From the NCBI GenBank assembly GCA_964467475.1, contig CAYXQO010000003.1:48819-112818 (forward strand): 64,000 bases of DNA, written 5' to 3'. The DNA is from an uncultured Syntrophomonadaceae bacterium (lineage in GTDB: Bacteria; Bacillota; Dethiobacteria; DTU022). Every line of letters starts with the position of its first letter. Positions within the stretch are counted from its first letter, which is position 1. Shown here piece by piece: positions 16,148 to 49,497 of the stretch. A model generated the notes under the pieces. The model was given only the letters and a program-made list of their open reading frames with translations. It did not search any database and was not told the origin of the DNA. Made by a program: the position numbers and the translations under genes.

Positions 16148-16376
16148 AAAGCGCAGGGTGCTTATTCCAAAAATGCTAACATGAAGCGAACACATTGTGT
16201 TAGCAATTGCTAATTGTTTGTATGATCTGTATGTTAGTTTTTGGTGTGGTTCGGCAAAAAAGATAGATTAACCAGGGTAAAGAAGTGGTTCTAAGAAGGG
16301 AATAACCAGAATATGTAGAAATTAACATTGCAACTCAAAAATATTGCAGGAACCTCGGAAAGGCAGACGATTAGTG

Positions 16377-17939
16377 ATGAAAATAGCCGGTGATGGAGTA
16401 TACCGGGGAGAAACGTTAAATAACAAACCGCACGGCCGAGGAACTGTGACCTGGCCAGACGGCAGCCGGTACACCGGTGAATTTAAAAACGGGTATTTTC
16501 ATGGTGAAGGTACTTTTATATGGTCGCATGGCGACAAGTATGAAGGACAGTGGAAAGAAGACCGCATGCATGGGCGGGGCACCTACCTTTTTGCTGATTG
16601 GCGCAAATATGAAGGGCAATGGTGTGAAGACCAAATGCACGGGCTGGGCACTTATTATTGGCCCAGCGGGGAAAAATACGAGGGTGAATTTGTAAACGGC
16701 CATTATGAGGGCCACGGCACCTATTCCTGGCCAGATGGCAAATTGTATTCGGGAAAGTGGAAGAGATCTTGCCGCCACGGGGAAGGCAAAATGACCTGGC
16801 CTGATGGCAAAAGTTATTCCGGATGTTGGTTTGAAGACCTCAGGCATGGCTATGGAGAACAAGTCTGGCCCGACGGGCGTTCTTATGCTGGTGAGTGGAA
16901 AAGGAACCGGATGCATGGGCATGGTATCTACACATTTGCTGATGGTTCGCGCTATGAAGGTTTGTTCAAAGAAGGCAGTTTTGTCGACAAGGGAAAATTT
17001 TATTATCCCGACGGTTCCAGGTTCAAGGGTAAAATTTTCAACGGGCTTCCCCATGGCAAAGGAATCGTTTTGTTTTCCGATGGCAGCCAGTTCTACGGAA
17101 AGTTTGAGTACGGTTACGACATCGGGTGGGGAGAATGCTATTATTCTGACGGATCGAAATATATCGGTGAAAGCAAACAGAATTTACCCCATGGTGAGGG
17201 CAGGTTAAATTATCCGGATGGTTCTCGCTATGTAGGGATGTTTAAAAATGGAGTTCCCGATGATTCGGGAAGTTTCTTTTTTAACGATGGATCTCGTTTT
17301 GCCGGAGATATGAAGCATGGTCGTCCACACGGTCAGGGGAGAGTAACTTTTAGGGATGGATCGAATTACACGGGCGAATTTAGGAAAGGTTCTAGAGAGG
17401 GTAAAGGCCGACAAGCCTGGCCTGATGGTTCCGAATACGAGGGGGAATGGTTTGACGACCGAATCAGCGGCCAGGGAGTCTACTGTTCTGCTTCGGGAAA
17501 TCGCTACGAAGGGTATTTTTATAACAACCTACGTCATGGATGGGGCTGCCTGGAGCAGGCTGACGGAGCAGAATTTGAAGGGAACTGGAAAAATGGTAAA
17601 ATGCACGGCTATGGCCGCTGCCGGTTTGCCCGGGGTGGCTTATATGAAGGAGAATTTGCCGGTGGCAAGTTTCATGGTTGGGGCGTGAGAACCTGGGCTG
17701 CCGGCAGTATCTACAAGGGCCGCTGGTGGAAAGGATTAAGGCACAAGTACGGAACTTATTCGCCTGTTGTTGGTGATCAATACAATGGAGGATGGTTTTT
17801 GGACCGCTGTCACGGACACGGCCGCATAATAACCGGAGAAGTGTTTAAAAAGGGTTTTTGGTTTTTAGGTTTTGGACCGTTCAGGGTTACCGAAGAGCAC
17901 TTAGATTTCTCTTCTGAAGGCAACTTTTCTGAAAGCTAA
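16377..17939 (+). CDS. MORN-repeat protein (~22 tandem MORN repeats)
   Basis: The unit Y.G.W...K.HG.G is repeated throughout. The repeats also create ORF artefacts in other frames. Confidence 0.75.
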   Translation: MKIAGDGVYRGETLNNKPHGRGTVTWPDGSRYTGEFKNGYFHGEGTFIWSHGDKYEGQWKEDRMHGRGTYLFADWRKYEGQWCEDQMHGLGTYYWPSGEKYEGEFVNGHYEGHGTYSWPDGKLYSGKWKRSCRHGEGKMTWPDGKSYSGCWFEDLRHGYGEQVWPDGRSYAGEWKRNRMHGHGIYTFADGSRYEGLFKEGSFVDKGKFYYPDGSRFKGKIFNGLPHGKGIVLFSDGSQFYGKFEYGYDIGWGECYYSDGSKYIGESKQNLPHGEGRLNYPDGSRYVGMFKNGVPDDSGSFFFNDGSRFAGDMKHGRPHGQGRVTFRDGSNYTGEFRKGSREGKGRQAWPDGSEYEGEWFDDRISGQGVYCSASGNRYEGYFYNNLRHGWGCLEQADGAEFEGNWKNGKMHGYGRCRFARGGLYEGEFAGGKFHGWGVRTWAAGSIYKGRWWKGLRHKYGTYSPVVGDQYNGGWFLDRCHGHGRIITGEVFKKGFWFLGFGPFRVTEEHLDFSSEGNFSES

Positions 17940-17964
17940 AAGCGATAATAATGTCGGTGAACAA

Positions 17965-17993
17965 TTGACAATATATTTATTTTTAATTATACT
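17965..17993 (+). promoter_or_regulatory. Sigma-A-type promoter (TTGACA, 17-nt spacer, TATACT)
   Basis: Read directly. Positioned to start a transcript ~18 nt before the riboswitch-like element. Confidence 0.5.
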
Positions 17994-18017
17994 TTGAGCA
18001 CTGGATAATTTATGGTG

Positions 18018-18112
18018 TCCGATCGACAAAGGCAAACCTGTCGAGAGGCAGGGGCGCAAAACCAAGGGCCTTAGGAATTACAATGGGCTAAGGCAGCCTG
18101 GTTGCCAGATTG
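18018..18112 (+). ncRNA. Candidate c-di-GMP-I (GEMM) riboswitch aptamer
   Basis: GGCAAACC precedes a hairpin CCUGUC-GAGA-GGCAGG with a GNRA loop. Then comes GGCGCAAAACC, a P3 hairpin GCCUUAGG...CUAAGGC, and a closing GGUUGCC. This parallels the Vc2-type consensus GGCAAACC-hairpin(GAAA)-GACGCAAAGCC. Confidence 0.6.
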
Positions 18113-18135
18113 GCATTTTGAACATTTCTTTGTCG

Positions 18136-18162
18136 GTCCCTTATTTTAAAGGGTTTTTTTTA
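18136..18162 (+). terminator. Riboswitch expression-platform terminator
   Basis: CCCTTATTTTAAAGGG followed by TTTTTTTT. Confidence 0.5.
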
Positions 18163-18342
18163 TGTATTATATCGAAAGACTGAACCCGGCTATAATATTT
18201 AACTATATTTGTTTTATTTACAATTTCAATTACTAAGGTTAACTTAAACCGGGGTAAAGGATATCGCTTTATACTTAATCCGTTTAAGCTTGATGCCGAT
18301 AATAATAACAGCAACACTAGCAGAATTTAGGTGCGATCAAAT

Positions 18343-19464
18343 ATGCGACTAGTACCCGTTTGGGCTTTGCGGCCCGGGATGACGGTAGCTAAAAAAGTTT
18401 CCAGTGGTGAGGGAGCAGCTCTTCTCAATGCCGGGGTAAAACTGGAAATGGAATATATTCAACAGCTTAAGAAGCTTAATATTCGTGGAGTTTACGTTCA
18501 TGACAACTTGATACCGGATATTGAGGTTGAAGATGTGATCCTTGATGAGACCAGGGAAAAGGCGGTAAGCCTGGTTAAGGATACTTTGACCGGAATAAAA
18601 GGCCAGAGCGATAAAAAATACACCCAGTTTATTTCTGTAAAAAAAGAATTGTCCAACCTTCTCGATGATATAGTTGGCCAGCTTCTCAGTAATAAAAATC
18701 TCACAGTTAACTTATCCGATATCAGGTATACTGACAATTACACATTTTCACATTCAGTTAATGTTGCAGTTTTGGCTATTATGACCGGGATATCGCTGGG
18801 GATGGGCAAATCTGCCTTGAAGAATATGGGGCTTGGTGCTTTTCTCCATGACCTGGGGAAAGTGGTCGTCCCCTTAAAGATATTAAACAAACCTGATCGT
18901 TTGGGTGAAGATGAGCGTCTGGAAATTGAAAGGCATCCGGCTTACGGCTTTGACCTGATCAAAAGCCGCCAGTTGTTTAACGGCCCTACACTGTCAATTG
19001 TTTACAAACATCACGAGAGAATTGATGGCAGTGGTTATCCGCAGGGTTTGTATGGAGACAAAATTGAATTATACCCCAAAGTGTGTGCTGTTGCGGATGT
19101 TTATGATGCCCTGGTATCGGATCGTCCTTATCGGCCCGGCTTTATGCCTCACAAAGCGATGGAAATAATGGATCAAGAATGTTCAGGATATGATCTTGAT
19201 ATCATGCAAACTTTTTACCACCACATTCCCGCTTACCCGGTGGGAACTATAGTGGGCTTAACTAACGGCTTTGTCGGTGTGGTGGTACACAATACCCATG
19301 GGTATCCATACCGGCCCAAAGTCAGGGTGATTTCTGACAGGGAAGATTATATGCCCCTGGATAGCTTTGAAGTAGATCTCCTGGAAAAACTTGATGTGGC
19401 TGTGGACCGGGTTTACCTGGATGATGAACTGCCGCAGCAATTATTAAACCGGGGTATATCTTGA
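18343..19464 (+). CDS. HD-GYP domain c-di-GMP phosphodiesterase
   Basis: HSVNVA...FLHDLGK...HHERIDGSGYP motifs. ATG 18343 follows a TAGGTG RBS. Confidence 0.85.
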   Translation: MRLVPVWALRPGMTVAKKVSSGEGAALLNAGVKLEMEYIQQLKKLNIRGVYVHDNLIPDIEVEDVILDETREKAVSLVKDTLTGIKGQSDKKYTQFISVKKELSNLLDDIVGQLLSNKNLTVNLSDIRYTDNYTFSHSVNVAVLAIMTGISLGMGKSALKNMGLGAFLHDLGKVVVPLKILNKPDRLGEDERLEIERHPAYGFDLIKSRQLFNGPTLSIVYKHHERIDGSGYPQGLYGDKIELYPKVCAVADVYDALVSDRPYRPGFMPHKAMEIMDQECSGYDLDIMQTFYHHIPAYPVGTIVGLTNGFVGVVVHNTHGYPYRPKVRVISDREDYMPLDSFEVDLLEKLDVAVDRVYLDDELPQQLLNRGIS

Positions 19465-19497
19465 TCATCCAAAGTCATAGAACGGGGAGAAGCTGTT

Positions 19498-19758
19498 ATG
19501 GAACTGAAAAATCTTATGGAACAAGTTGTTTCGCAGACGATTGATGATGTGAGGAAATATCATGAATTTTGCACTTGTCCGCAGTGTCGCCTGGATGTTA
19601 GTGCAATCGCTTTAAACAAAGTTCCACCTCGCTACGTGGTTTCCAGCAAGGGTGAAAGTTACGGGAGAGCTGAACTATTGGCCATGCAGGAGGATCTGGA
19701 TGTTCTGGGTGTCGTCCTTGAGGCAGTTAAATTAGTGCAAAAAAACCCACGGCATTGA
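19498..19758 (+). CDS. ComFB-family small protein (4-Cys)
   Basis: CTCPQC...C spacing and an overall ~86 aa length match ComFB. Confidence 0.65.
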   Translation: MELKNLMEQVVSQTIDDVRKYHEFCTCPQCRLDVSAIALNKVPPRYVVSSKGESYGRAELLAMQEDLDVLGVVLEAVKLVQKNPRH

Positions 19759-19836
19759 TCATCGATAATTTTATGTATTTCACGGAAAAGTGCTACTCTA
19801 GGACCCCAAAAAATACCGAAGTGAGGGTTTGTTCAC

Positions 19837-21645
19837 ATGGGACAACATGAAGAAAACAACAATAATGCTGAGAAAATCCTGCTTGCCGTGGAAAACGGCC
19901 GGGTTAAAATTAGCGATACTTCCGGTGAAGGTGTCAAGGGAGCGCTCATTCGACCGGGACAAGGGATTTCTGTAAAAGTAAATAACCAGGAGATAACTGG
20001 GAGTCAGGAAGTTTATCCCGGAGACAAGGTTGAAATCACGCCTCTTGAAGAAACCGAACCGGACCGGGTTGAAGTTAAAGTCAGCGCCGATGGAATGAAG
20101 GCGCATGCCCGGTATCTGCCCGGCATTCGGCGTTACTATGTTATACCTGATCACCCATACACGGACGACCTCACAGTTGAAGGTGAACCTAAAGAAGAAC
20201 CTCTAAAAAACCTCACTCCTGAGCAAATCCTTGAAACGATAAAAGAAAATGGGGTTAATTTCGGTATCGATGAATCATTATTACCGGTTTTGCTTGAGGA
20301 AAGTGAAACCTGGCAAACTGTGGCCTCCGGAAAACCGGTTGTACAGGGAAAAAACGGCTGGGTTGAGCCGCTGTTTGAAGGAGCGGTAAAGGCTGTTTCC
20401 TATGATGATGAAGCAAACCGGGTTGATCTCCGCAGAAGGTTTGAAATTGAGGAGGTTAACAAGGATGATGTTATTGCCAATATACACCCTCCTGTTCCAG
20501 GCGAAGCCGGAAAAAGGGTAACCGGGGAGGATATTCAACCCGATCCGGTTTTCCCGGTGGAGATAAAATGTGATCACGGGACTGCCCTTAGCCAGGATCA
20601 AACAAAGGTGATAGCTACCTGTACCGGAGCCCCTAGCTATAAAAAAGGGCGCACCCCTAAATTCAGGGTCGATGATTTGTACACCCACAAAGGCGACGTT
20701 GATATTAAAAGTGGAAATATTGATTTCCGCGGTCATTTAAAAGTCCAGGGGGGCATAAACGAGGGAATGAAGGTTTCCGCCGACGGTAATTTGGAAGTAG
20801 AAAAAAATGCTTCCGGAGCGGAAGTGTTGGCCGGCGGCAGCATCATTCTTAAAGGAAACTGTATTAAATGCAAAGTTCGGGCCGGCTGGGTAGAAATGGT
20901 AGTTTCCGAAATATATGAAACCCTGGATAAAATGAATGATAGTGTAACCAGCGCCCTGGCTGCTTCAGAAGAAGTTGCCAAGGCCCTGGAAAAGAAAGGC
21001 AAACATACTGAAAAAATGGAGGCGGCGGTAGTCCGCTCACTTTTGCAAAGTAAATTTGCAGAACTCCCTGAGTATGCCAATTCCCTTATGAAGACGGTAA
21101 AAGCTGCCGGAAGGTCAATCCCAGGGAGCCTGGCTCAGTTAATCAATGATATTGCGCCGTATTTTACCGATTACCAGTACAGTCAAACTTTAGGGCGTCC
21201 TGTGTTGCAGGAAATACATGATAAACTCCAGCAATTAAAAAATGATAGTTCAGATGAGAAGTCAGTACGAGCTGATATTACCGTCCCTTATGTCCAGAAC
21301 AGCGAGCTTACCGCTACCGGCAATATAATTATTAACGGTCCCGGTGTATATAATTCTCAAATAAAGTGCAAAGATGAAGTGAGGGTTTCCCGGCTGTTTA
21401 GAGGAGGAACCATTGAGGCAGGTGGCGATGTCTACATAGGCGAAGCCGGATCGCCGCGGGTTAGCTCTGAACAGGGGCGGATCCAGGTTCCTTATAAGAG
21501 CAAAGTACATCTGGGCAATATCTATGAAAATGTGAAAATAAAATTTGGCAATATCGAATTCCGCACTGAAAAACCCTTAAGTAGCGTCCGCCTTGTCCTC
21601 GACCAGGAAGAATTTGAAGTAAAAATCCTTCCCTGGGAAAAATAA
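19837..21645 (+). CDS. FapA-family (DUF342) protein
   Basis: About 600 aa with C-terminal beta-helix-like repeats (GNLEVEKNASGAEVLAGGSIILKGN...). This family is typical of chemotaxis/flagellar neighbourhoods. Confidence 0.65.
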   Translation: MGQHEENNNNAEKILLAVENGRVKISDTSGEGVKGALIRPGQGISVKVNNQEITGSQEVYPGDKVEITPLEETEPDRVEVKVSADGMKAHARYLPGIRRYYVIPDHPYTDDLTVEGEPKEEPLKNLTPEQILETIKENGVNFGIDESLLPVLLEESETWQTVASGKPVVQGKNGWVEPLFEGAVKAVSYDDEANRVDLRRRFEIEEVNKDDVIANIHPPVPGEAGKRVTGEDIQPDPVFPVEIKCDHGTALSQDQTKVIATCTGAPSYKKGRTPKFRVDDLYTHKGDVDIKSGNIDFRGHLKVQGGINEGMKVSADGNLEVEKNASGAEVLAGGSIILKGNCIKCKVRAGWVEMVVSEIYETLDKMNDSVTSALAASEEVAKALEKKGKHTEKMEAAVVRSLLQSKFAELPEYANSLMKTVKAAGRSIPGSLAQLINDIAPYFTDYQYSQTLGRPVLQEIHDKLQQLKNDSSDEKSVRADITVPYVQNSELTATGNIIINGPGVYNSQIKCKDEVRVSRLFRGGTIEAGGDVYIGEAGSPRVSSEQGRIQVPYKSKVHLGNIYENVKIKFGNIEFRTEKPLSSVRLVLDQEEFEVKILPWEK

Positions 21646-21777
21646 TTACACCTTTACTTAATTACCCCTTAAATATTTTTCCAACCTGACGATTATTGAA
21701 TATGAAAGACTTAGTATCTGGTTAGAGGTAGAAAATTTACGCTGGATCCAAGTTCTTATGGAAAGAAGGGATCGAAG

Positions 21778-22065
21778 ATGAGAATAAGTTCAAACTATCT
21801 TCAATTGATTAACCGTATACTTACAGATCAACCGGGTAAATCATCGGGTGATTCTCAAAAGGCCAAGCCGAAAGGGGAAGACAGCAAAGAACTATCAAAG
21901 CTGCTTACCGGCTTGCAGGAGGAGATGGACCGACTCGAAGAGGAATCCCGCCCTGAGAAAGCGGCCCAGCTGAAAAGTCTTGCCGAAAAAATTGAAAGCG
22001 GCGAGTATCATGTGGACAGCGAAAAATTGGCCGAAGCGATGCTTAAATTCATGGGGAAAATTTAG
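21778..22065 (+). CDS. flgM: Anti-sigma-28 factor FlgM
   Basis: C-terminal KIESGEYHVDSEKLAEAMLKF is the FlgM signature. Confidence 0.8.
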   Translation: MRISSNYLQLINRILTDQPGKSSGDSQKAKPKGEDSKELSKLLTGLQEEMDRLEEESRPEKAAQLKSLAEKIESGEYHVDSEKLAEAMLKFMGKI

Positions 22066-22086
22066 AACTTGAAGGGAATGCTTAAC

Positions 22087-22572
22087 ATGGCAGTACCTGT
22101 ATACCGGGAAAAAGCGGTACAGCTGGATAATGTTTTAACCGAAGGAACCAAATTATACAAAAGTTTACTTAATATGGAAGAAAAGCTGCGCAAACAGTTG
22201 ATGAAAGGTGATTATAATGCGCTTTTGGAAGATGAGGAGAAGCGGAAACTGCTCCAGCAAGAGATTGCCTGCCTCGAGGACAAGCGCAAAAGCCTGGTTC
22301 CCGGGGAAAGAAGCATCAGGGAATATATCAAAACCAGGATTGCAAAAACCAGCCAACCTGCTTTACTGGAAAAGTTAGATGAAATCAAAGACATCTTGCA
22401 GAAAACAAAAGCTGTGCATGAAGTAAATCGCGCTCTGTTAGAAGAGCGGATCCGATTTTCGAAAGAACTCCAGGATTTGGTCCTGAATACTAAAATCGCA
22501 CATTACGACCAGAAGGGCCGGCTTCAAAGGTCGGGGCCGGGGGCTGCCGGTAGTCTTAACCGCAGCTGTTGA
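22087..22572 (+). CDS. flgN: Flagellar export chaperone FlgN
   Basis: Positioned between flgM and flgK. Helical FlgN-like sequence. ATG 22087 follows a GAAGGGA RBS. Confidence 0.65.
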   Translation: MAVPVYREKAVQLDNVLTEGTKLYKSLLNMEEKLRKQLMKGDYNALLEDEEKRKLLQQEIACLEDKRKSLVPGERSIREYIKTRIAKTSQPALLEKLDEIKDILQKTKAVHEVNRALLEERIRFSKELQDLVLNTKIAHYDQKGRLQRSGPGAAGSLNRSC

Positions 22573-22602
22573 TAAGGTTTAAAAGCAAAGGAGAATAAGG
22601 CA

Positions 22603-24000
22603 ATGACTATATTTGGTTCATTTGAGATTGGCCGCAAAGCTTTAAGGGCACAGCACAAAGGAATGGAAGTCAGTGGCCAAAACGTGGCCAATGCCAACAC
22701 TCCCGGATATAGCCGGCAGAGGGCTAACCTGGAATCGGTTGCCTCACCCATAGTGGCTGATACAGACATGGCACCCGGTAACGGGGTAAGGGTCTCAAAG
22801 GTTGAAAGAATGCACAGTGAATTTTACCACTCGCAGATGATTAATACCGGCTCCCACGAGGCTTACTGGGAAACACGCCGCGAAACTTACCTGACTACAG
22901 AATCGATTATGATGGAACCGGATGAATACGGGATCAACAAGTATTTAAATGATTTTTTTGATGCCTGGCAGGAATTAAGTTCTTCCCCCGAAGAAGCTGC
23001 CGTGCGTTCCGGTTTGCGTGAAAAGTCAATCAGCCTTACTCATACGGTTGAAGATGTTTATATGCGCCTTGAAGATACACGCCTTGACAAGCAGGAAGAG
23101 TTGGAAATGCGGGTTAACGAAGCAAACCGGTTAGCCGATGAGATCGGTGAATTGAATGACAAATTGCGTTTTGTCGATGCCCTCCAGCAAGATTCCAACG
23201 AACTGCTTGACAAACTGGATCTGGCTATCGAAGATTTATCCGAACTGCTCGATATCCAGGTGCACCGCAAAGGCAGCGGCACGGTTGATATATTTGCAGG
23301 TGGTCAGTTAATAGTCCAGGAAGACCAGGCGCTCCATCTGGATTTAAAAACTGTTGATGAGAGCGAAGGCTTGCAGGTAGTAAGCCACCGGGGCCGGCCT
23401 CTTAATTTGACCTCCGGTCGCATTGTCGCGCTAAGCGATGCAGTGAATAAAGATATTCCCCATGTCCAGGACGAGCTTGATAAAGTTGTGGGGACCCTTA
23501 TAGAAGAGGTTAATGAACTGCATAGTGAAGGCTACGGTTTGGACCAGGAGGAGAGCGGAAACAACTTTTTCGAAGATGTTGAGGAAGGATCTTCGGCGGC
23601 CATGAATTTTCAGGTCGCGGAACCGATCATCGAAGATTCTTCAAATATCGCTGCTTCCAGTGAACCTAATGAACCCGGCAACGGGGAAAACTCTCTTGAA
23701 ATAGCTCGCCTGAGGGATAAAAGGGGCGATGAACGTTTAGATGGAGTTACCCTGGTGGAATATTACCGGGGCCTGGTAACCTCAATTGGTGTTGAGGCCC
23801 AGGAGTGTGAGCGGATGGTCGAAGCATTTAATAGTACCAAGAAGGAATTCCAGGAGATGCATAACTCGGTGGCCGGTGTCAATATGGACGAAGAAGTGTT
23901 GAATATGACCCAGTACCAGCATGCCTGGCAGGCCGCTGCGCGTTATTTGAATCACGTAGATGAAATGCTTACCGTGCTCTTTACCGAGCTGGGACGTTAG
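22603..24000 (+). CDS. flgK: Flagellar hook-associated protein 1 FlgK
   Basis: N-terminal GMEVSGQNVANANTPGYSRQ and a conserved C-terminus. Confidence 0.9.
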   Translation: MTIFGSFEIGRKALRAQHKGMEVSGQNVANANTPGYSRQRANLESVASPIVADTDMAPGNGVRVSKVERMHSEFYHSQMINTGSHEAYWETRRETYLTTESIMMEPDEYGINKYLNDFFDAWQELSSSPEEAAVRSGLREKSISLTHTVEDVYMRLEDTRLDKQEELEMRVNEANRLADEIGELNDKLRFVDALQQDSNELLDKLDLAIEDLSELLDIQVHRKGSGTVDIFAGGQLIVQEDQALHLDLKTVDESEGLQVVSHRGRPLNLTSGRIVALSDAVNKDIPHVQDELDKVVGTLIEEVNELHSEGYGLDQEESGNNFFEDVEEGSSAAMNFQVAEPIIEDSSNIAASSEPNEPGNGENSLEIARLRDKRGDERLDGVTLVEYYRGLVTSIGVEAQECERMVEAFNSTKKEFQEMHNSVAGVNMDEEVLNMTQYQHAWQAAARYLNHVDEMLTVLFTELGR

Positions 24001-24011
24001 GAGGTCCGGTT

Positions 24012-25982
24012 ATGCGAATAACTCATAGCATGGTTGCTCACAACATAAATCGTAATCTTCAAAACAACCTCAGCAGGCTTGAAGATTACGGGCACCAGTT
24101 GTCGACGGGCAAAAAATTTACCCGGCCTTCCCAGGAACCGGTCGGCGTGGGCAGAGTAATGAGTTACAGCGCTTCAATCGATCGAAACGAGCAATTTAGG
24201 CTCAACATGAACCAGTCCAGGAGCTGGCTGGAGAATACCGAGGGAGGCCTGCAAAATGGGTTGGACGTACTGCAGCGGATCCGGGAGTTGTGTATTCACG
24301 GGGCCAATGACAGCCTGACCGCGGAAGATCGCCGGGCCATGGCCCCGGAAGTAATTGAGTTTATCGAGCATCTGATCGGGGTAGCCAATAAAGAATCGAA
24401 CGGTTTATACACCTTTGGCGGCCACCAGACTTTTGATCCCCCCTATCTCAGGGAAAACACTTATCACGTTAGTGTAAGTGAAGACAGCGGGATCCTTTTT
24501 GGGGAGGTAAACGAAGACGAAGTTTATGATGTGGTTGCCGAAGGGTTGCAGAACGGTGATTACCGCCTCGAGCAAAGCAGAGAAGAGATGGAGGAAAATC
24601 AAGCTGCCGCTGTCAGCATAAACCAGCAATTCCTGCAGGGCAGCGCCGTCAATATTATCGGTGATGAAGATTTTGACAGTACTGCAGGGGTAATTGAAAG
24701 CGGGATCATGGTTGACACAGAGCTGCAGGAAGGATCGGAGCTGGCAATAGATGATGAAGATGGTTTTGTTACGACTGATGATGATTTTGAGGGAGACTTT
24801 GCTTTGCAGCTTACTTATGACGAGGAAGATGGACAATGGAATTATGTTGAAAGCGTCAGCGGTGAGACCGGTACAGTAAATATAGATAATGACAATGGAA
24901 CCCTCGAACCTGATGATAACGAAGATCCTTCCTTTTTGGGCGGTGACTTTACTTTAGATACGTCTCAGCTCGAAAATGCCGAAGACGGCGATACTGTCAC
25001 CGTCGCTTCCGGCTTCAGCGCTTCGGTGGAGTTAGAGGTAAACTCTATCGACGAAGCAACCGGTGAGGTCAAGTATACCTATACCTCTCACCAGTATGCC
25101 CTGGATGGAACCTATGCCAAAAAAGAGGGCACATTCGAGGTTACTTATGGTGAAGACGGGGAAGCAACCCAACCTGTTGAAATTGGAGAGATCCAACTGG
25201 ATCTGGCAGGATTAGATGAACTCGAGGCTGCCGATGCCGGGGATTTGCAGGTGGGTGACAAAGCAATCCTAAACTTCACCCCTGCCCGCGAGGAAAACTT
25301 AACCTATGATCAAATCAAGCTCAGCGGAGATTACCGGGGCGATAATACTGAAACGAATTACTTCTTTGCCGAAGGTGCCCTGGATGAAAAAAGCATTGAT
25401 CTGCACCAGCAAAGCCTCGATACTTTCAGCCGTTCACCGGAGCTGGGCGAAAGCTACGATGGCAAGCTAAGCCTTACCTACGGTGATGAATTCGAAGATA
25501 CCGGTGACGAGGCCGCTTTAACTTTTTCATACGACGCTGAAGGCTTTCCGGTTTATTACGGTGACGACAAAGAACGCAGCCAGGATATCAGCCCGCATCA
25601 GCAGGTGATTATGAACTTAAGCGGCAAAAAAGTTTTTGGTGAAAACGAGGAAGTGTTTGAGGCTGTGTTTGAAGTTTACAATGCCTTGATGGATAACGAC
25701 CGGGAAGCTTTGGGGGGCGAAGCTCTGGATAAGATGGACCGATCCGTGGATCATTTCTTGGAACAGTTAGCCCAGGTGGGAGCCCGTTCTAACCGGGTGG
25801 AAGCAATGTATGACACGCTTTTCAGCGAAAATATTTCTCTGCGTGAGGTTCGTTCTGAAATAGAAGATATTGATCTGGCCTATGCGATTACCGAATTTAC
25901 CATGCAGGAGAATGCTTACCACGCTGCGCTTTCAACAAGCCAGAAAATGCTTCAGCCCACCCTGGTAGATTACATGCGCTAA
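24012..25982 (+). CDS. flgL: Flagellar hook-associated protein 3 FlgL, with a large acidic central insertion
   Basis: N-terminal MRITHSMVAHNINRNLQNNLSRLE..LSTGKKFTRPSQEP matches FlgL. Length is 656 aa. Confidence 0.85.
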   Translation: MRITHSMVAHNINRNLQNNLSRLEDYGHQLSTGKKFTRPSQEPVGVGRVMSYSASIDRNEQFRLNMNQSRSWLENTEGGLQNGLDVLQRIRELCIHGANDSLTAEDRRAMAPEVIEFIEHLIGVANKESNGLYTFGGHQTFDPPYLRENTYHVSVSEDSGILFGEVNEDEVYDVVAEGLQNGDYRLEQSREEMEENQAAAVSINQQFLQGSAVNIIGDEDFDSTAGVIESGIMVDTELQEGSELAIDDEDGFVTTDDDFEGDFALQLTYDEEDGQWNYVESVSGETGTVNIDNDNGTLEPDDNEDPSFLGGDFTLDTSQLENAEDGDTVTVASGFSASVELEVNSIDEATGEVKYTYTSHQYALDGTYAKKEGTFEVTYGEDGEATQPVEIGEIQLDLAGLDELEAADAGDLQVGDKAILNFTPAREENLTYDQIKLSGDYRGDNTETNYFFAEGALDEKSIDLHQQSLDTFSRSPELGESYDGKLSLTYGDEFEDTGDEAALTFSYDAEGFPVYYGDDKERSQDISPHQQVIMNLSGKKVFGENEEVFEAVFEVYNALMDNDREALGGEALDKMDRSVDHFLEQLAQVGARSNRVEAMYDTLFSENISLREVRSEIEDIDLAYAITEFTMQENAYHAALSTSQKMLQPTLVDYMR

Positions 25983-26009
25983 TTGTGTGTTAGAACAGGA
26001 GGTTTAATT

Positions 26010-26441
26010 ATGACAATTGAACAGACCGCCGTAGATGCAAGCCAACGCAAGCTGGTAGAGTTTATTTTCCCCCGAGGCATCCCCGGGTTGGAACTGTACC
26101 GCCGCTTTTTAATAGAACCGATTCCCGGTAACAGGCTTTTTGCCATGCTGGTTGCGGCAGATGATCCTTCAATCGGGATGATCCTGGTTGATCCCCTGCC
26201 CTTTTTCCCCCGTTACAGTGTGGACCTGCAGAGAAACGACCGCCGCGATTTAATGCTCAAAAGAGATCGCGACCTGGTGATATTTACTACCGTTACCGTG
26301 GATGAAGCTATGCTCTATACCAACCTTGCCGCCCCGATCCTGGTCAATGTGGCCCAGAAACGCGGCAAGCAGCTTATCGTGCCCCATCGCTGCGACGATA
26401 TGCGGGTACCGCTTGATACAGTGGTAGGGCCGGAGAATTAA
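26010..26441 (+). CDS. fliW: Flagellar assembly factor FliW
   Basis: FPRGIPGLE...F.L.P...FA.L...DDPSIGMILVDP motifs. ATG 26010 follows a CAGGAGG RBS. Confidence 0.85.
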   Translation: MTIEQTAVDASQRKLVEFIFPRGIPGLELYRRFLIEPIPGNRLFAMLVAADDPSIGMILVDPLPFFPRYSVDLQRNDRRDLMLKRDRDLVIFTTVTVDEAMLYTNLAAPILVNVAQKRGKQLIVPHRCDDMRVPLDTVVGPEN

Positions 26442-26448
26442 AAGCGGG

Positions 26449-26886
26449 GTGAAAAAAATTAACCGGGCACAACATGGCAAGACGGCAAAAACAAGTAATC
26501 AGGATAAGGCTGGCGAAAGAGGTTTGACTCGCTCAGTGGATGTCCTTGAACGCTTAAGCGTTGCTCTAAAAGAAGAAACGGCAGCAATTAACAATTTTGA
26601 TGATGAAAAGCTAAAAGAACATGGAGATATAATCCAGGCATTATTTGATGAGCTAACAGACTCTATGCCTTCTGCAAAAGATCTTTCTATTGATGAATCA
26701 AAAAACCTTTACGGCTTATTAAAGGATGTCAAACAGCACCGGGAAAAAAACCGGCAGCTCTTAGAGAAGTTGGTGAAAAATGCCGGGGAAAAAATCAATA
26801 AGCTTTCTGTGGGCAGACAAACTTTGCAAGCCTATAAAGGATTAAAACCAGATAAAGAAGAATTGTTTGTTAAGAAAAAATGCTGA
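26449..26886 (+). CDS. Hypothetical helical protein, possibly a FlgN/FliT-like flagellar chaperone (occupies the usual csrA slot)
   Basis: No CsrA motifs. Helical and K/E-rich. The start codon is uncertain. Confidence 0.35.
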   Translation: MKKINRAQHGKTAKTSNQDKAGERGLTRSVDVLERLSVALKEETAAINNFDDEKLKEHGDIIQALFDELTDSMPSAKDLSIDESKNLYGLLKDVKQHREKNRQLLEKLVKNAGEKINKLSVGRQTLQAYKGLKPDKEELFVKKKC

Positions 26887-27140
26887 GTGATTTCAGTTTA
26901 TAAAAAACCTTTTTTACAGCTACAGATACTGCTGCTGCATGTTTCATTGTCACTACCCAAAGCCCCACTATAATGCTACTAAAACCTCTTACCAGGCTTC
27001 GGTGGATTTGCTAACAGTTAAATTCATAAAAGAAATATTACAAAAAAGAAGGAATTATTAGTCCGGCAGCGAATGTAGAAAAGTGGAGGGGGCTAATTAT
27101 TAACTTTTTATAATTAATTTAAACTTTTTTTGTTTTTTTA

Positions 27141-27170
27141 TTGACCGGACAGTTATCACTTTGCTATAAT
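27141..27170 (+). promoter_or_regulatory. Sigma-A promoter of the flgB operon (TTGACC, 18-nt spacer, TATAAT)
   Basis: Read directly at 27141..27146 and 27165..27170. Confidence 0.6.
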
Positions 27171-27215
27171 GTAAGTCCAATATTGAGAAAGAACTGGTAT
27201 TAGTAAACTAAAAGA

Positions 27216-27295
27216 CTGTTAAAGGCTAACCCATAGTGATATGGGGGCGCAAAACCGTGGATCCGTCCAGTGCCGGATTGCCAGGTTGCCAGTCT
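27216..27295 (+). ncRNA. Candidate c-di-GMP-I (GEMM) riboswitch aptamer in the flgB leader
   Basis: GGCUAACC, then hairpin CCCAUA-GUGA-UAUGGG (GNRA loop), then GGCGCAAAACC, then a P3 hairpin, then GGUUGCCAG. The architecture matches the element at 18018. Confidence 0.55.
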
Positions 27296-27349
27296 CTGAT
27301 AGAAATTAAACAAGGAATTCCCATAATAAGGGAAACCTTGATTATCAAA

Positions 27350-27390
27350 GAGAGGCAGCCATTTAACCGGCTTCCTCTCTTTTTTATTTT
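27350..27390 (+). terminator. Intrinsic terminator/attenuator immediately upstream of flgB
   Basis: GAGAGGCAGCC-ATTTAACC-GGCTTCCTCTC with one mismatch, followed by TTTTTTATTTT. Confidence 0.6.
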
Positions 27391-48732: not shown

Positions 48733-49497
48733 ATGCTTGAGCAGAATGCGAAAAAAGCATATCAAAATCACGAACAGGCAAAGCCACATGAAGGCAGCAG
48801 TGAAGAGGTTATTACCAATTACCTTCCGTTGATTAGAAAGCTGGCCGGTAAGCTCAGCATAGCCTTGCCTCCTTCTCTGGATGAGGAAGACCTGGTCGGA
48901 AGCGGAATTATTGGTTTGATCGAAGCCTGGGAGCGCTATGAAAGTTCGCGAGGCGTGCAGTTTTCTACCTATGCTACCTGGCGAATTAAAGGTGCCATGA
49001 TTGATGAAATCCGTAAAAGCAGTCCGGCGTCGCGTTCATTTTTCAGCCAGTTCCGCAAGCTCCATGAAACTGAAGAAAAATTAAGGCAGACGTTGAACAG
49101 GGAACCGGAGAAGGAAGAAATCGCTTCTTACCTTGGCTGGAATCCTTCCACGGTAGACCAGGTTTGGGCAAATTACAATCTTATGTCGGTAGTGTCCCTG
49201 GAAAAAGTGATTCACTCGCCCGATGGCGATGAGACCCTTCGTTTGGAAGGGGTGATTGCATCGCCTGAGCAAACACCCGAAGAAATACTTGCCGACAAAG
49301 ATCAGGTCAGGCAGTTGGCCGAGGCAATTGATCAACTGCCTGAACGGGAGCGGTTGATGTTGTCTTTATTCTACTATGAAGAGCTTACCAAGAAAGAAAT
49401 TGCCGAACTAATGAAGGTCTCGGCAGCGCGTATTTCACAACTTCATGCCCGGGCTATAGAAAGACTGCGGTTGATGTTGGCAAACCCGTCTGAATAA
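48733..49497 (+). CDS. fliA: Flagellar sigma factor sigma-28 (FliA/SigD)
   Basis: Sigma-70 regions 2 to 4. Position after flhG. Confidence 0.9.
   Translation: MLEQNAKKAYQNHEQAKPHEGSSEEVITNYLPLIRKLAGKLSIALPPSLDEEDLVGSGIIGLIEAWERYESSRGVQFSTYATWRIKGAMIDEIRKSSPASRSFFSQFRKLHETEEKLRQTLNREPEKEEIASYLGWNPSTVDQVWANYNLMSVVSLEKVIHSPDGDETLRLEGVIASPEQTPEEILADKDQVRQLAEAIDQLPERERLMLSLFYYEELTKKEIAELMKVSAARISQLHARAIERLRLMLANPSE

Follow-up and report, generated by a model that had tools for sequence, protein, structure and literature searches.

Does the spacer between a MORN-repeat gene and an HD-GYP gene hold a riboswitch that would let c-di-GMP control its own degradation, and if so, in which direction would it act? 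The spacer has 404 nt (region 17940-18345) and lies in a 64,000-nt stretch of DNA from an uncultured Syntrophomonadaceae bacterium; we will call this whole stretch the window. A first-pass annotation, made from the letters of the DNA, described a GEMM-I (c-di-GMP-I) RNA with its own promoter and terminator and suggested a direct feedback loop with the phosphodiesterase gene that follows. We propose, with a probability of about 0.6, that the spacer holds a transcription-terminating class I c-di-GMP riboswitch, most likely an OFF switch, and that it was acquired ahead of a pre-existing sigma-D promoter where a motility gene cluster begins.

The locus and its relatives

The genes and the transcription and translation signals of the locus are:

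16344-17939: MORN-repeat gene, the upstream neighbour of the riboswitch spacer
17965-17993, + strand: sigma-A-type promoter (TTGACA, 17-nt spacer, TATACT)
18276-18302, + strand: candidate sigma-D/FliA-type promoter (TAAT-N15-GCCGATAA), ending 41 nt before the ATG
18329-18333, + strand: Shine-Dalgarno sequence AGGTG, 9 nt before the ATG at 18343, conserved in orthologous loci L087 and L089
18343-19464, + strand: HD-GYP domain protein, predicted c-di-GMP phosphodiesterase, 373 aa (PF13487)
19498-19758, + strand: ComFB-family protein (PF10719, E = 6e-23), 34 nt after the HD-GYP gene
19837-21645, + strand: homolog of FapA (flagellar assembly protein A), from Pfam
After FapA and up to about 26886, + strand: FlgM, FlgN, FlgK, a Flagellin_N protein, FliW, and a 145-aa ORF, from Pfam
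27214-27293: second c-di-GMP-I aptamer (RF01051, 59.7 bits), with its own promoter and a strong terminator

The HD-GYP gene is where the first-pass annotation had placed it. Its product matches PF13487 (HD_5) with 91.2 bits (E = 8e-26), and the start codon from the gene callers agrees with an exact protein look-up. The nearest solved structures are PmGH (4mcw, E = 3e-25), which is an active HD-GYP phosphodiesterase, and V-cGAP3 (5z7c). H137, H169-D170, H198, H223-H224, D252, and the GYP motif are conserved, and within this set the motifs HDLGK and HHERIDGSGYP, along with H137, H198, and D252, are invariant in 42 homologs. Four residues before the first His, the protein has a Tyr where PmGH has a Glu; this Glu reportedly ligates the third metal in PmGH. 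Given these residues, we predict that the protein degrades c-di-GMP, with cGAMP as the other possible substrate.

ComFB proteins are receptors for c-di-GMP or c-di-AMP, and ComFB from B. subtilis inhibits motility (PMC12448109, PMC12265714). The ComFB-family protein in the window has D33, A36, I37, N40, K41, V47, and Y55, which are all of the contact positions listed in PMC12448109, and it also keeps Cys25/27/30. It is a predicted c-di-GMP receptor. Beyond FapA come the late flagellar genes, and a simple scan of 19400-27300 found no terminator-like site on the + strand. We infer the limits of an operon that would run from HD-GYP to FliW. So the first-pass annotation was right that HD-GYP is the first gene under the leader, but what is regulated is not this one gene alone: the unit forms the start of a cluster of late flagellar genes.

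Two predicted promoters lie within the spacer. The sigma-A-type promoter, which the first-pass annotation had reported, is at 17965-17993 and matches 11 of 12 consensus positions in a promoter scan. In the closest ortholog (L087; 83% protein identity), both hexamers are identical, even with differences at 8 of the 17 spacer bases. (The name of the L087 contig, SL_5KL_010_SED, can be read as soda-lake sediment.) Transcription from this promoter would start near 18000.

The second promoter lies in the roughly 180 nt between the U-tract of the terminator and the ATG of HD-GYP. For comparison, the sigma-D consensus of B. subtilis is a TAAA-N15-GCCGATAT-like motif. The motif T[AT]A[AT]-N14-16-GCCGA[AT]3 occurs 36-41 nt before the HD-GYP start in the window and in L087, L088, L091, and L094. 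It is essentially the sole match in each of these five loci of 4-7 kb, and three of the five have no riboswitch. A FliA/WhiG sigma factor is encoded in the window at 48733-49497 (TIGR02479, 234.5 bits), and the site at 18276-18302 is a candidate for use by sigma-D. Most other matches to GCCGATA in the window are inside genes or lack a correctly spaced -35 element, so the site at 18295 is the sole one that we put forward as a sigma-D-type promoter. We also considered a 24-codon leader ORF that would begin at 18162, and dismissed it: it lacks a Shine-Dalgarno sequence, and L087 does not share it.

Orthologous loci were gathered by exact protein look-up; a search of metagenome contigs with a single protein gave 4 loci. 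The aptamer is present in just one of the 14 orthologous loci (55-83% protein identity), namely L087, so that, counting the window, 2 of 15 syntenic loci have the riboswitch. In twelve loci at 55-76% identity, L088 and L089 from the metagenome search among them, neither Rfam nor our own covariance model found an aptamer, even with filters off. These twelve keep the HD-GYP-ComFB(-FapA) arrangement. In most loci that lack the aptamer, the spacer upstream of HD-GYP is merely 112-223 nt. The order TatC-MORN-HD-GYP-ComFB-FapA-FlgM is kept in the loci that are long enough to show it. Among the matches listed in a search of genome contigs, 80 distant HD-GYP loci (at most 39% identity) had no aptamer either. 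Since L087 is the only one of the 14 orthologous loci to carry it, the riboswitch was either recently gained or widely lost.

An identical HD-GYP protein is found on metagenome contigs (JGI 3300027784 and several SRA runs), and its named relatives are a "Bacillota bacterium" and, at 55% identity, a "Dethiobacter sp." The organism is a Bacillota bacterium, probably from a soda lake.

Aptamer fold and expression platform

The elements of the leader RNA, all on the + strand, are:

18019-18113, + strand: c-di-GMP-I-type aptamer, identified by an Rfam match at 18022-18110, ligand contacts, and covariation
About 18019-18025 with 18106-18113, + strand: P1
18037-18042/18047-18052, + strand: P1a, with a GAGA loop
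18060-18074/18088-18103, + strand: P1b
18021-18031, + strand: 5' strand of the anti-terminator (anti-P1), GAUCGACAAAG, which includes the 5' strand of P1, the conserved AAA, and G20
18128-18138, + strand: 3' strand of the anti-terminator, CUUUGUCGGUC; its last base, C18138, also opens the terminator stem
18138-18161, + strand: intrinsic terminator with a 5-bp stem (CCCUU/AAGGG), a 6-nt loop, and U8

The match to a covariance model, the nucleotides that contact the ligand, and covariation all agree that this is a c-di-GMP-I aptamer. The motifs that had led the first-pass annotation to propose it, GGCAAACC, a GNRA loop (GAGA), and GGCGCAAAACC, are all present as described. Its closing helix does not hold up: GGCAAACC was supposed to pair with a downstream GGUUGCC, and in the family fold both segments sit in P1a, P1b, and the ligand pocket. 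Furthermore, L087 turns the pair A18035-U18102 of that helix into an A·C mismatch. The same change, U18102 to C, is compensated within P1b, where A18061-U18102 becomes G-C.

To look at covariation, we aligned three aptamers: 18022-18110 of the window, its ortholog in L087, and the second aptamer of the window (27214-27293). Each of the three aptamers forms every one of the 20 modelled pairs, 7 of which have changed on both sides. With slid partners, just 0-1 pairs changed on both sides, and 1 of 500 shuffles equals the real 7.

The two orthologous aptamers differ in how their hairpins could meet. In the window, the tetraloop is GAGA, and P1b is fully paired (CCUUAGG/CUAAGG) where the 11-nt receptor would be. 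L087 has a GAAA loop and a UCUAAG/UAUGA motif that resembles the 11-nt receptor. It looks as if loop and receptor changed in concert. GEMM RNAs that lack a receptor ("type 2") also count as members of the class. The window's aptamer also has G in place of the conserved A of the "GAC" bulge, and the aptamer upstream of flgB has the same G.

Downstream of the aptamer, a terminator scan found the short hairpin and U8 that the first-pass annotation had described (CCCTT-ATTTTA-AAGGG at 18138-18153, then T8 at 18154-18161). The alternative structure is an 11-bp helix, 18021-31/18128-38, which is in the minimum-free-energy fold of the leader. The energy of this anti-terminator duplex is -17.0 kcal/mol; dinucleotide shuffles were as stable in 2 of 2000 cases for the window and in 10 of 2000 for L087. 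When we folded the growing chain, P1 and the aptamer persisted until 18132, and the long-range helix won once 18138 was made (-51.6 versus -40.3 kcal/mol). L087 keeps the helix by two changes that preserve pairing (U·G to U-A, and A-U to G·U). Because the 11-bp helix buries the 5' strand of P1, the conserved AAA, and G20, it is incompatible with ligand binding.

The helix also competes with the terminator. In the window they share one base, and losing that base weakens the terminator from -4.7 to -1.4 kcal/mol (a 4-bp stem). L087 has a terminator at the same place, with a stem of 12 positions that includes one U·U mismatch, followed by U7. There, the overlap is 4 nt (GAUC); without these bases, the terminator has -8.1 instead of -13.8 kcal/mol and no longer adjoins the U-tract. 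These structures suggest that the riboswitch is probably an OFF switch. The window's terminator is weak, with 3 G-C pairs in 5 bp, and given such a marginal terminator and the one-base overlap, the predicted contrast between the two states is small in this genome. The expression platform is known from two independent sequences, the window and L087, which makes for thin covariation support. The OFF model leans on L087 as a single ortholog.

Under our proposal, the sigma-A promoter would start the leader RNA near 18000, and the aptamer, with its canonical pocket (G20/A47/C92), would bind c-di-GMP. When no ligand is present, GAUCGACAAAG, including G20, would pair with CUUUGUCGGUC as soon as the latter is made. 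This anti-P1 helix would occupy the bottom of the terminator stem, so that RNA polymerase would read on into HD-GYP, ComFB, FapA, and FlgM. With c-di-GMP bound, P1 and the pocket would be locked, no anti-terminator could form, and the hairpin with its U8 would release the leader as an RNA of about 160 nt. At high c-di-GMP, there would thus be less sigma-A-driven expression of the phosphodiesterase and of the late flagellar genes. This would be a positive (double-negative) feedback that reinforces the decision to be motile or sessile. The first-pass annotation had foreseen a feedback loop, and the HD-GYP gene is downstream as it said, but the OFF platform implies that the feedback is positive (double-negative) rather than homeostatic.

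Riboswitch control would also be incomplete. The leader has its own sigma-A promoter and terminator, as first described, but the conserved sigma-D-type promoter would partly bypass them. Since that promoter lies past the terminator, the riboswitch can gate only transcripts that start at the sigma-A promoter or read through from upstream, and transcription from 18276-18302 would be independent of it. The history of the locus is likely that an ancestral operon, driven by sigma-D, gained an upstream cassette made of the sigma-A promoter, the aptamer, and the terminator.

We also considered that the aptamer is real but that the switch has largely decayed, or has another role, in this genome, with the sigma-D promoter driving the HD-GYP operon. 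The hairpin may then mainly end the tatC-MORN transcripts as well as the sigma-A leader, and the product would be a stand-alone RNA of about 160 nt that binds c-di-GMP. This would account for a terminator that is 8 nt shorter than that of L087 and has lost most of its overlap with the anti-terminator, and for a conserved sigma-D-type promoter that sits past the terminator and is present in orthologs without a riboswitch. It would also fit the terminator scan, which found no terminator between the MORN gene and the riboswitch. However, the hexamers of the promoter, the core of the aptamer, and the anti-terminator helix are intact while the surrounding intergenic DNA has strongly diverged. That all three are preserved between two lineages argues for selection on the whole switch, and we consider its decay unlikely.

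Could the same aptamer be an ON switch instead? Ligand binding would then favour read-through and high c-di-GMP would induce its own phosphodiesterase, a homeostatic circuit; negative feedback on a second messenger is an intuitive design. Some class I c-di-GMP riboswitches, such as Vc1, do activate expression (PMC4744006), and neither predicted state gives the window a strong terminator. But an ON switch seems inconsistent with the platform: no segment that the ligand would free is complementary to either strand of the terminator, and the sole significant alternative helix joins the 5' strand of the aptamer to the bottom of the terminator, which is OFF logic. Also, the genes that follow are flagellar, a kind of gene that c-di-GMP represses in other systems (PMC6366702). 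We view an ON switch as quite improbable.

The second riboswitch bears on our proposal of an OFF switch as well. It precedes flgB, flgC, fliE, and fliF, and the cluster continues to flhF, flhG, and fliA. By analogy, its layout is the same as that of Cd1-flgB-sigD of C. difficile. Because fliA is behind the riboswitch at 27214, the promoter at 18276-18302 is itself probably under the control of c-di-GMP. If both riboswitches are OFF switches, then c-di-GMP would repress the HD-GYP cluster directly and also via fliA and the sigma-D promoter.

Ligand pocket and choice of Rfam model

The first-pass annotation had named RF01051 as the family to search with. A significant match to the clan was found, but the top model is not RF01051. 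Across the 64-kb window, the best model at 18022-18110 is RF03167 (c-di-GMP-I-GGC), with 71.6 bits (E = 5.6e-15) against a gathering score of 59, and the match recurs when the sub-region is searched by itself. The L087 aptamer scores 72.7 bits with RF03167. A second family of the same clan (CL00126) is also over its own gathering score at 18022-18110. The Rfam listing is made after clan competition and gives a score just for the best clan member; by elimination, the second family is almost certainly RF01051 (gathering score 35). Other Rfam matches in the leader (PyrD_leader, SNORA19, and ceN89) have E = 3-8, are far under their gathering scores, and are noise.

The consensus pockets of RF01051 and RF03167 differ at one position: GACGC-A-AA (GACGCAAA) versus GACGC-G-AA (GACGCGAA). 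This position corresponds to A47 of the Vc2 riboswitch and is G in RF03167. The name "GGC" is said to stand for positions 20, 47, and 92, and c-di-GMP-I-GGC is reportedly an orphan variant. The window's aptamer reads GGCGC-A-AA, with A18058 at position 47, and L087 likewise has A. So the G47 that defines c-di-GMP-I-GGC is absent from this RNA, even though its score passes the threshold of RF03167. By alignment to the consensus, G18031 is G20, A18058 is A47, and C18105 is C92, and the interhelical pair is C18055 (C44) with G18096 (G83). In Vc2, the nucleotides G20, A47, and C92 contact c-di-GMP, and the interhelical pair C44-G83 is universally conserved (PMC4744006). Given these canonical contacts, c-di-GMP is the predicted ligand. 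The RNA is a genuine class I c-di-GMP riboswitch, an ordinary member of a well-known class.

That this RNA belongs to the orphan class (RF03167) and senses another ligand is very unlikely: RF03167 is the best-scoring model and is above its gathering score in both the window and L087, but its pocket differs from that of RF01051 only at A47, which both RNAs keep, and the c-di-GMP-I, -GGC, and -UAU models of Rfam are reported to recognise the same sequences (PMC9943018). Position 20 also speaks against 3'3'-cGAMP as the ligand, as G18031 is there instead of the A that distinguishes GEMM-Ib. A20 reportedly marks the riboswitches for 3'3'-cGAMP.

A bolder version of our proposal is that the RNA is a close relative of the GGC class that keeps A47 (ancestor-like or a revertant), that the full cassette of promoter, aptamer, and terminator was inserted recently ahead of the older sigma-D promoter, and that it forms a bistable double-negative loop through which c-di-GMP silences HD-GYP, ComFB, and FlgM. 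We regard this as doubtful. If it were true, then comparing this RNA with members of the GGC class would show the effect of A47G and may help to identify their ligand.

Comparison with known systems

The context of this riboswitch is familiar, as it involves genes for c-di-GMP turnover and motility, and no feature is categorically new. Of some interest are the misleading top match to the GGC model, an OFF-type platform that would be built on the 5' strand of the aptamer, the nested sigma-D promoter, and the pairing with a ComFB receptor and with a riboswitch linked to flgB. The locus is an example of a c-di-GMP riboswitch that appears to be wired directly to both the turnover and the reception of c-di-GMP: one leader is over an HD-GYP hydrolase, a ComFB-type receptor, and the anti-sigma factor FlgM, and it is layered on a sigma-D promoter. 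Its counterpart is the flgB-fliA operon with the second riboswitch. Should the OFF model hold, positive feedback would be combined with feed-forward, and the choice between motile and sessile could become switch-like. The patchy distribution illustrates how riboswitch cassettes can be gained or lost over short evolutionary distances.

The RNA shares with RF01051 and Vc2 (from V. cholerae) the two-hairpin architecture, with P1b and a GNRA loop on P1a, as well as the cores AAAGGCAAACC and GCGCAAA(A/G)C, the G20/A47/C92 contacts, and the C44-G83 pair. Unlike them, it has a GAGA loop with no 11-nt receptor in P1b, and G for the conserved A of the "GAC" bulge. As for c-di-GMP-I-GGC (RF03167), it is the best model match, but the pocket is the canonical G/A/C, with A18058 rather than G. 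For annotation, the caution is that the GGC model can outscore RF01051 on RNAs with a canonical pocket, so position 47 should be checked.

Bc1, from the B. cereus group, resembles our leader: it is reported to combine a class I aptamer with a platform based on termination, to have a long leader, and to involve several layers of regulation (PMC11218506). As described there, Bc1 has two terminators 28 bp apart; the window has one weak terminator, and then a second promoter.

The closest parallel in gene content is Cd1 (Cdi-1-3), which precedes the flgB operon of C. difficile and has been shown experimentally to be a class I OFF switch (PMC6366702). In both systems, an intrinsic terminator and flagellar genes come after a class I aptamer, both are from Bacillota, and both have sigD or fliA in the network. 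The directly equivalent position to Cd1 is that of the window's second riboswitch (27214-27293), not 18019-18113. Unlike Cd1, the riboswitch at 18019-18113 heads a late cluster (HD-GYP, ComFB, FapA, FlgM, FlgN, and FlgK) instead of flgB, an internal sigma-D-type promoter comes after it, and its first gene encodes a predicted c-di-GMP phosphodiesterase.

Genes around the HD-GYP gene

The following features flank the HD-GYP gene or lie elsewhere near the start of the window:
242–313, tRNA gene (RF00005, 73.3 bits)
16344–17939, MORN-repeat protein gene (531 aa), upstream of the HD-GYP gene
18276–18302, candidate sigma-D/FliA-type promoter motif, TAAT-N15-GCCGATAA, 3' of the riboswitch terminator and 5' of the HD-GYP gene
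19498–19758, ComFB-family protein gene, immediately 3' of the HD-GYP gene

The ComFB protein has the full set of residues that are reported to contact c-di-GMP in this family (D33, A36, I37, N40, K41, V47, and Y55), and three zinc-binding cysteines are likewise kept. Since these contact residues are kept and the ComFB gene adjoins the HD-GYP gene, we propose that the gene for a predicted c-di-GMP hydrolase is co-transcribed with the gene for a predicted c-di-GMP receptor. On the other side, the 531-aa protein consists almost entirely of MORN repeats (13 stretches matched), and in all orthologous loci whose upstream DNA reaches far enough, a MORN-repeat gene is flanked by tatC on one side and the HD-GYP gene on the other. 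(Read by eye, the tRNA has the anticodon loop CUUACAA and would accordingly be tRNA-Val(UAC).)

Distribution of the riboswitch

The gene order HD-GYP–ComFB(–FapA–FlgM) is kept in L088–L099, which are orthologous loci from relatives at 55–76% protein identity. The spacers upstream of the HD-GYP gene in these loci are mostly 112–223 nt and contain no c-di-GMP aptamer. Because of this, the riboswitch cassette is, as judged from these spacers, confined to the window's organism and its relative with 83% identity (locus L087). The two aptamers differ: the window's has a GAGA tetraloop and an all-Watson-Crick CCUUAGG/CUAAGG segment (18047–18050 and 18069–18093), while that of L087 (2644–2730) has GAAA and a UCUAAG/UAUGA motif similar to the 11-nt receptor. 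The tetraloop and the receptor appear to have changed jointly.

The sigma-D/FliA-type motif lies 36–41 nt upstream of the HD-GYP start in the window, L087, L088, L091, and L094, and this placement is kept in orthologous loci without the riboswitch as well. We also noticed a promoter-like site on the minus strand (TTGAAA-16-TATAGT, 18229–18202, 10/12 positions) that is directed back across the riboswitch; in DNA this rich in AT, such a match may have arisen by chance.

A second riboswitch upstream of flgB

Another c-di-GMP-I riboswitch, made of promoter, aptamer, and terminator, is found at 27141–27385 and is listed here with an ORF that precedes it and a sigma factor gene that lies farther downstream:
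26449–26886, 145-aa ORF, 3' of fliW
27141–27170, promoter, TTGACC-18-(TG)TATAAT
27214–27293, aptamer (RF01051, 59.7 bits)
~27347–27385, strong terminator
48733–49497, FliA/WhiG (sigma-28) factor gene (TIGR02479, 234.5 bits)

The 145-aa ORF has no match in Pfam or NCBIfam; its place after fliW is the one that csrA has in the B. subtilis operon. Directly downstream of the riboswitch is flgB (27409), which leads a gene cluster that extends through flhF (46669), flhG (47769), and the FliA/WhiG gene. This layout is the same as that of Cd1–flgB–sigD in C. difficile, where Cd1 is a class I c-di-GMP OFF riboswitch.
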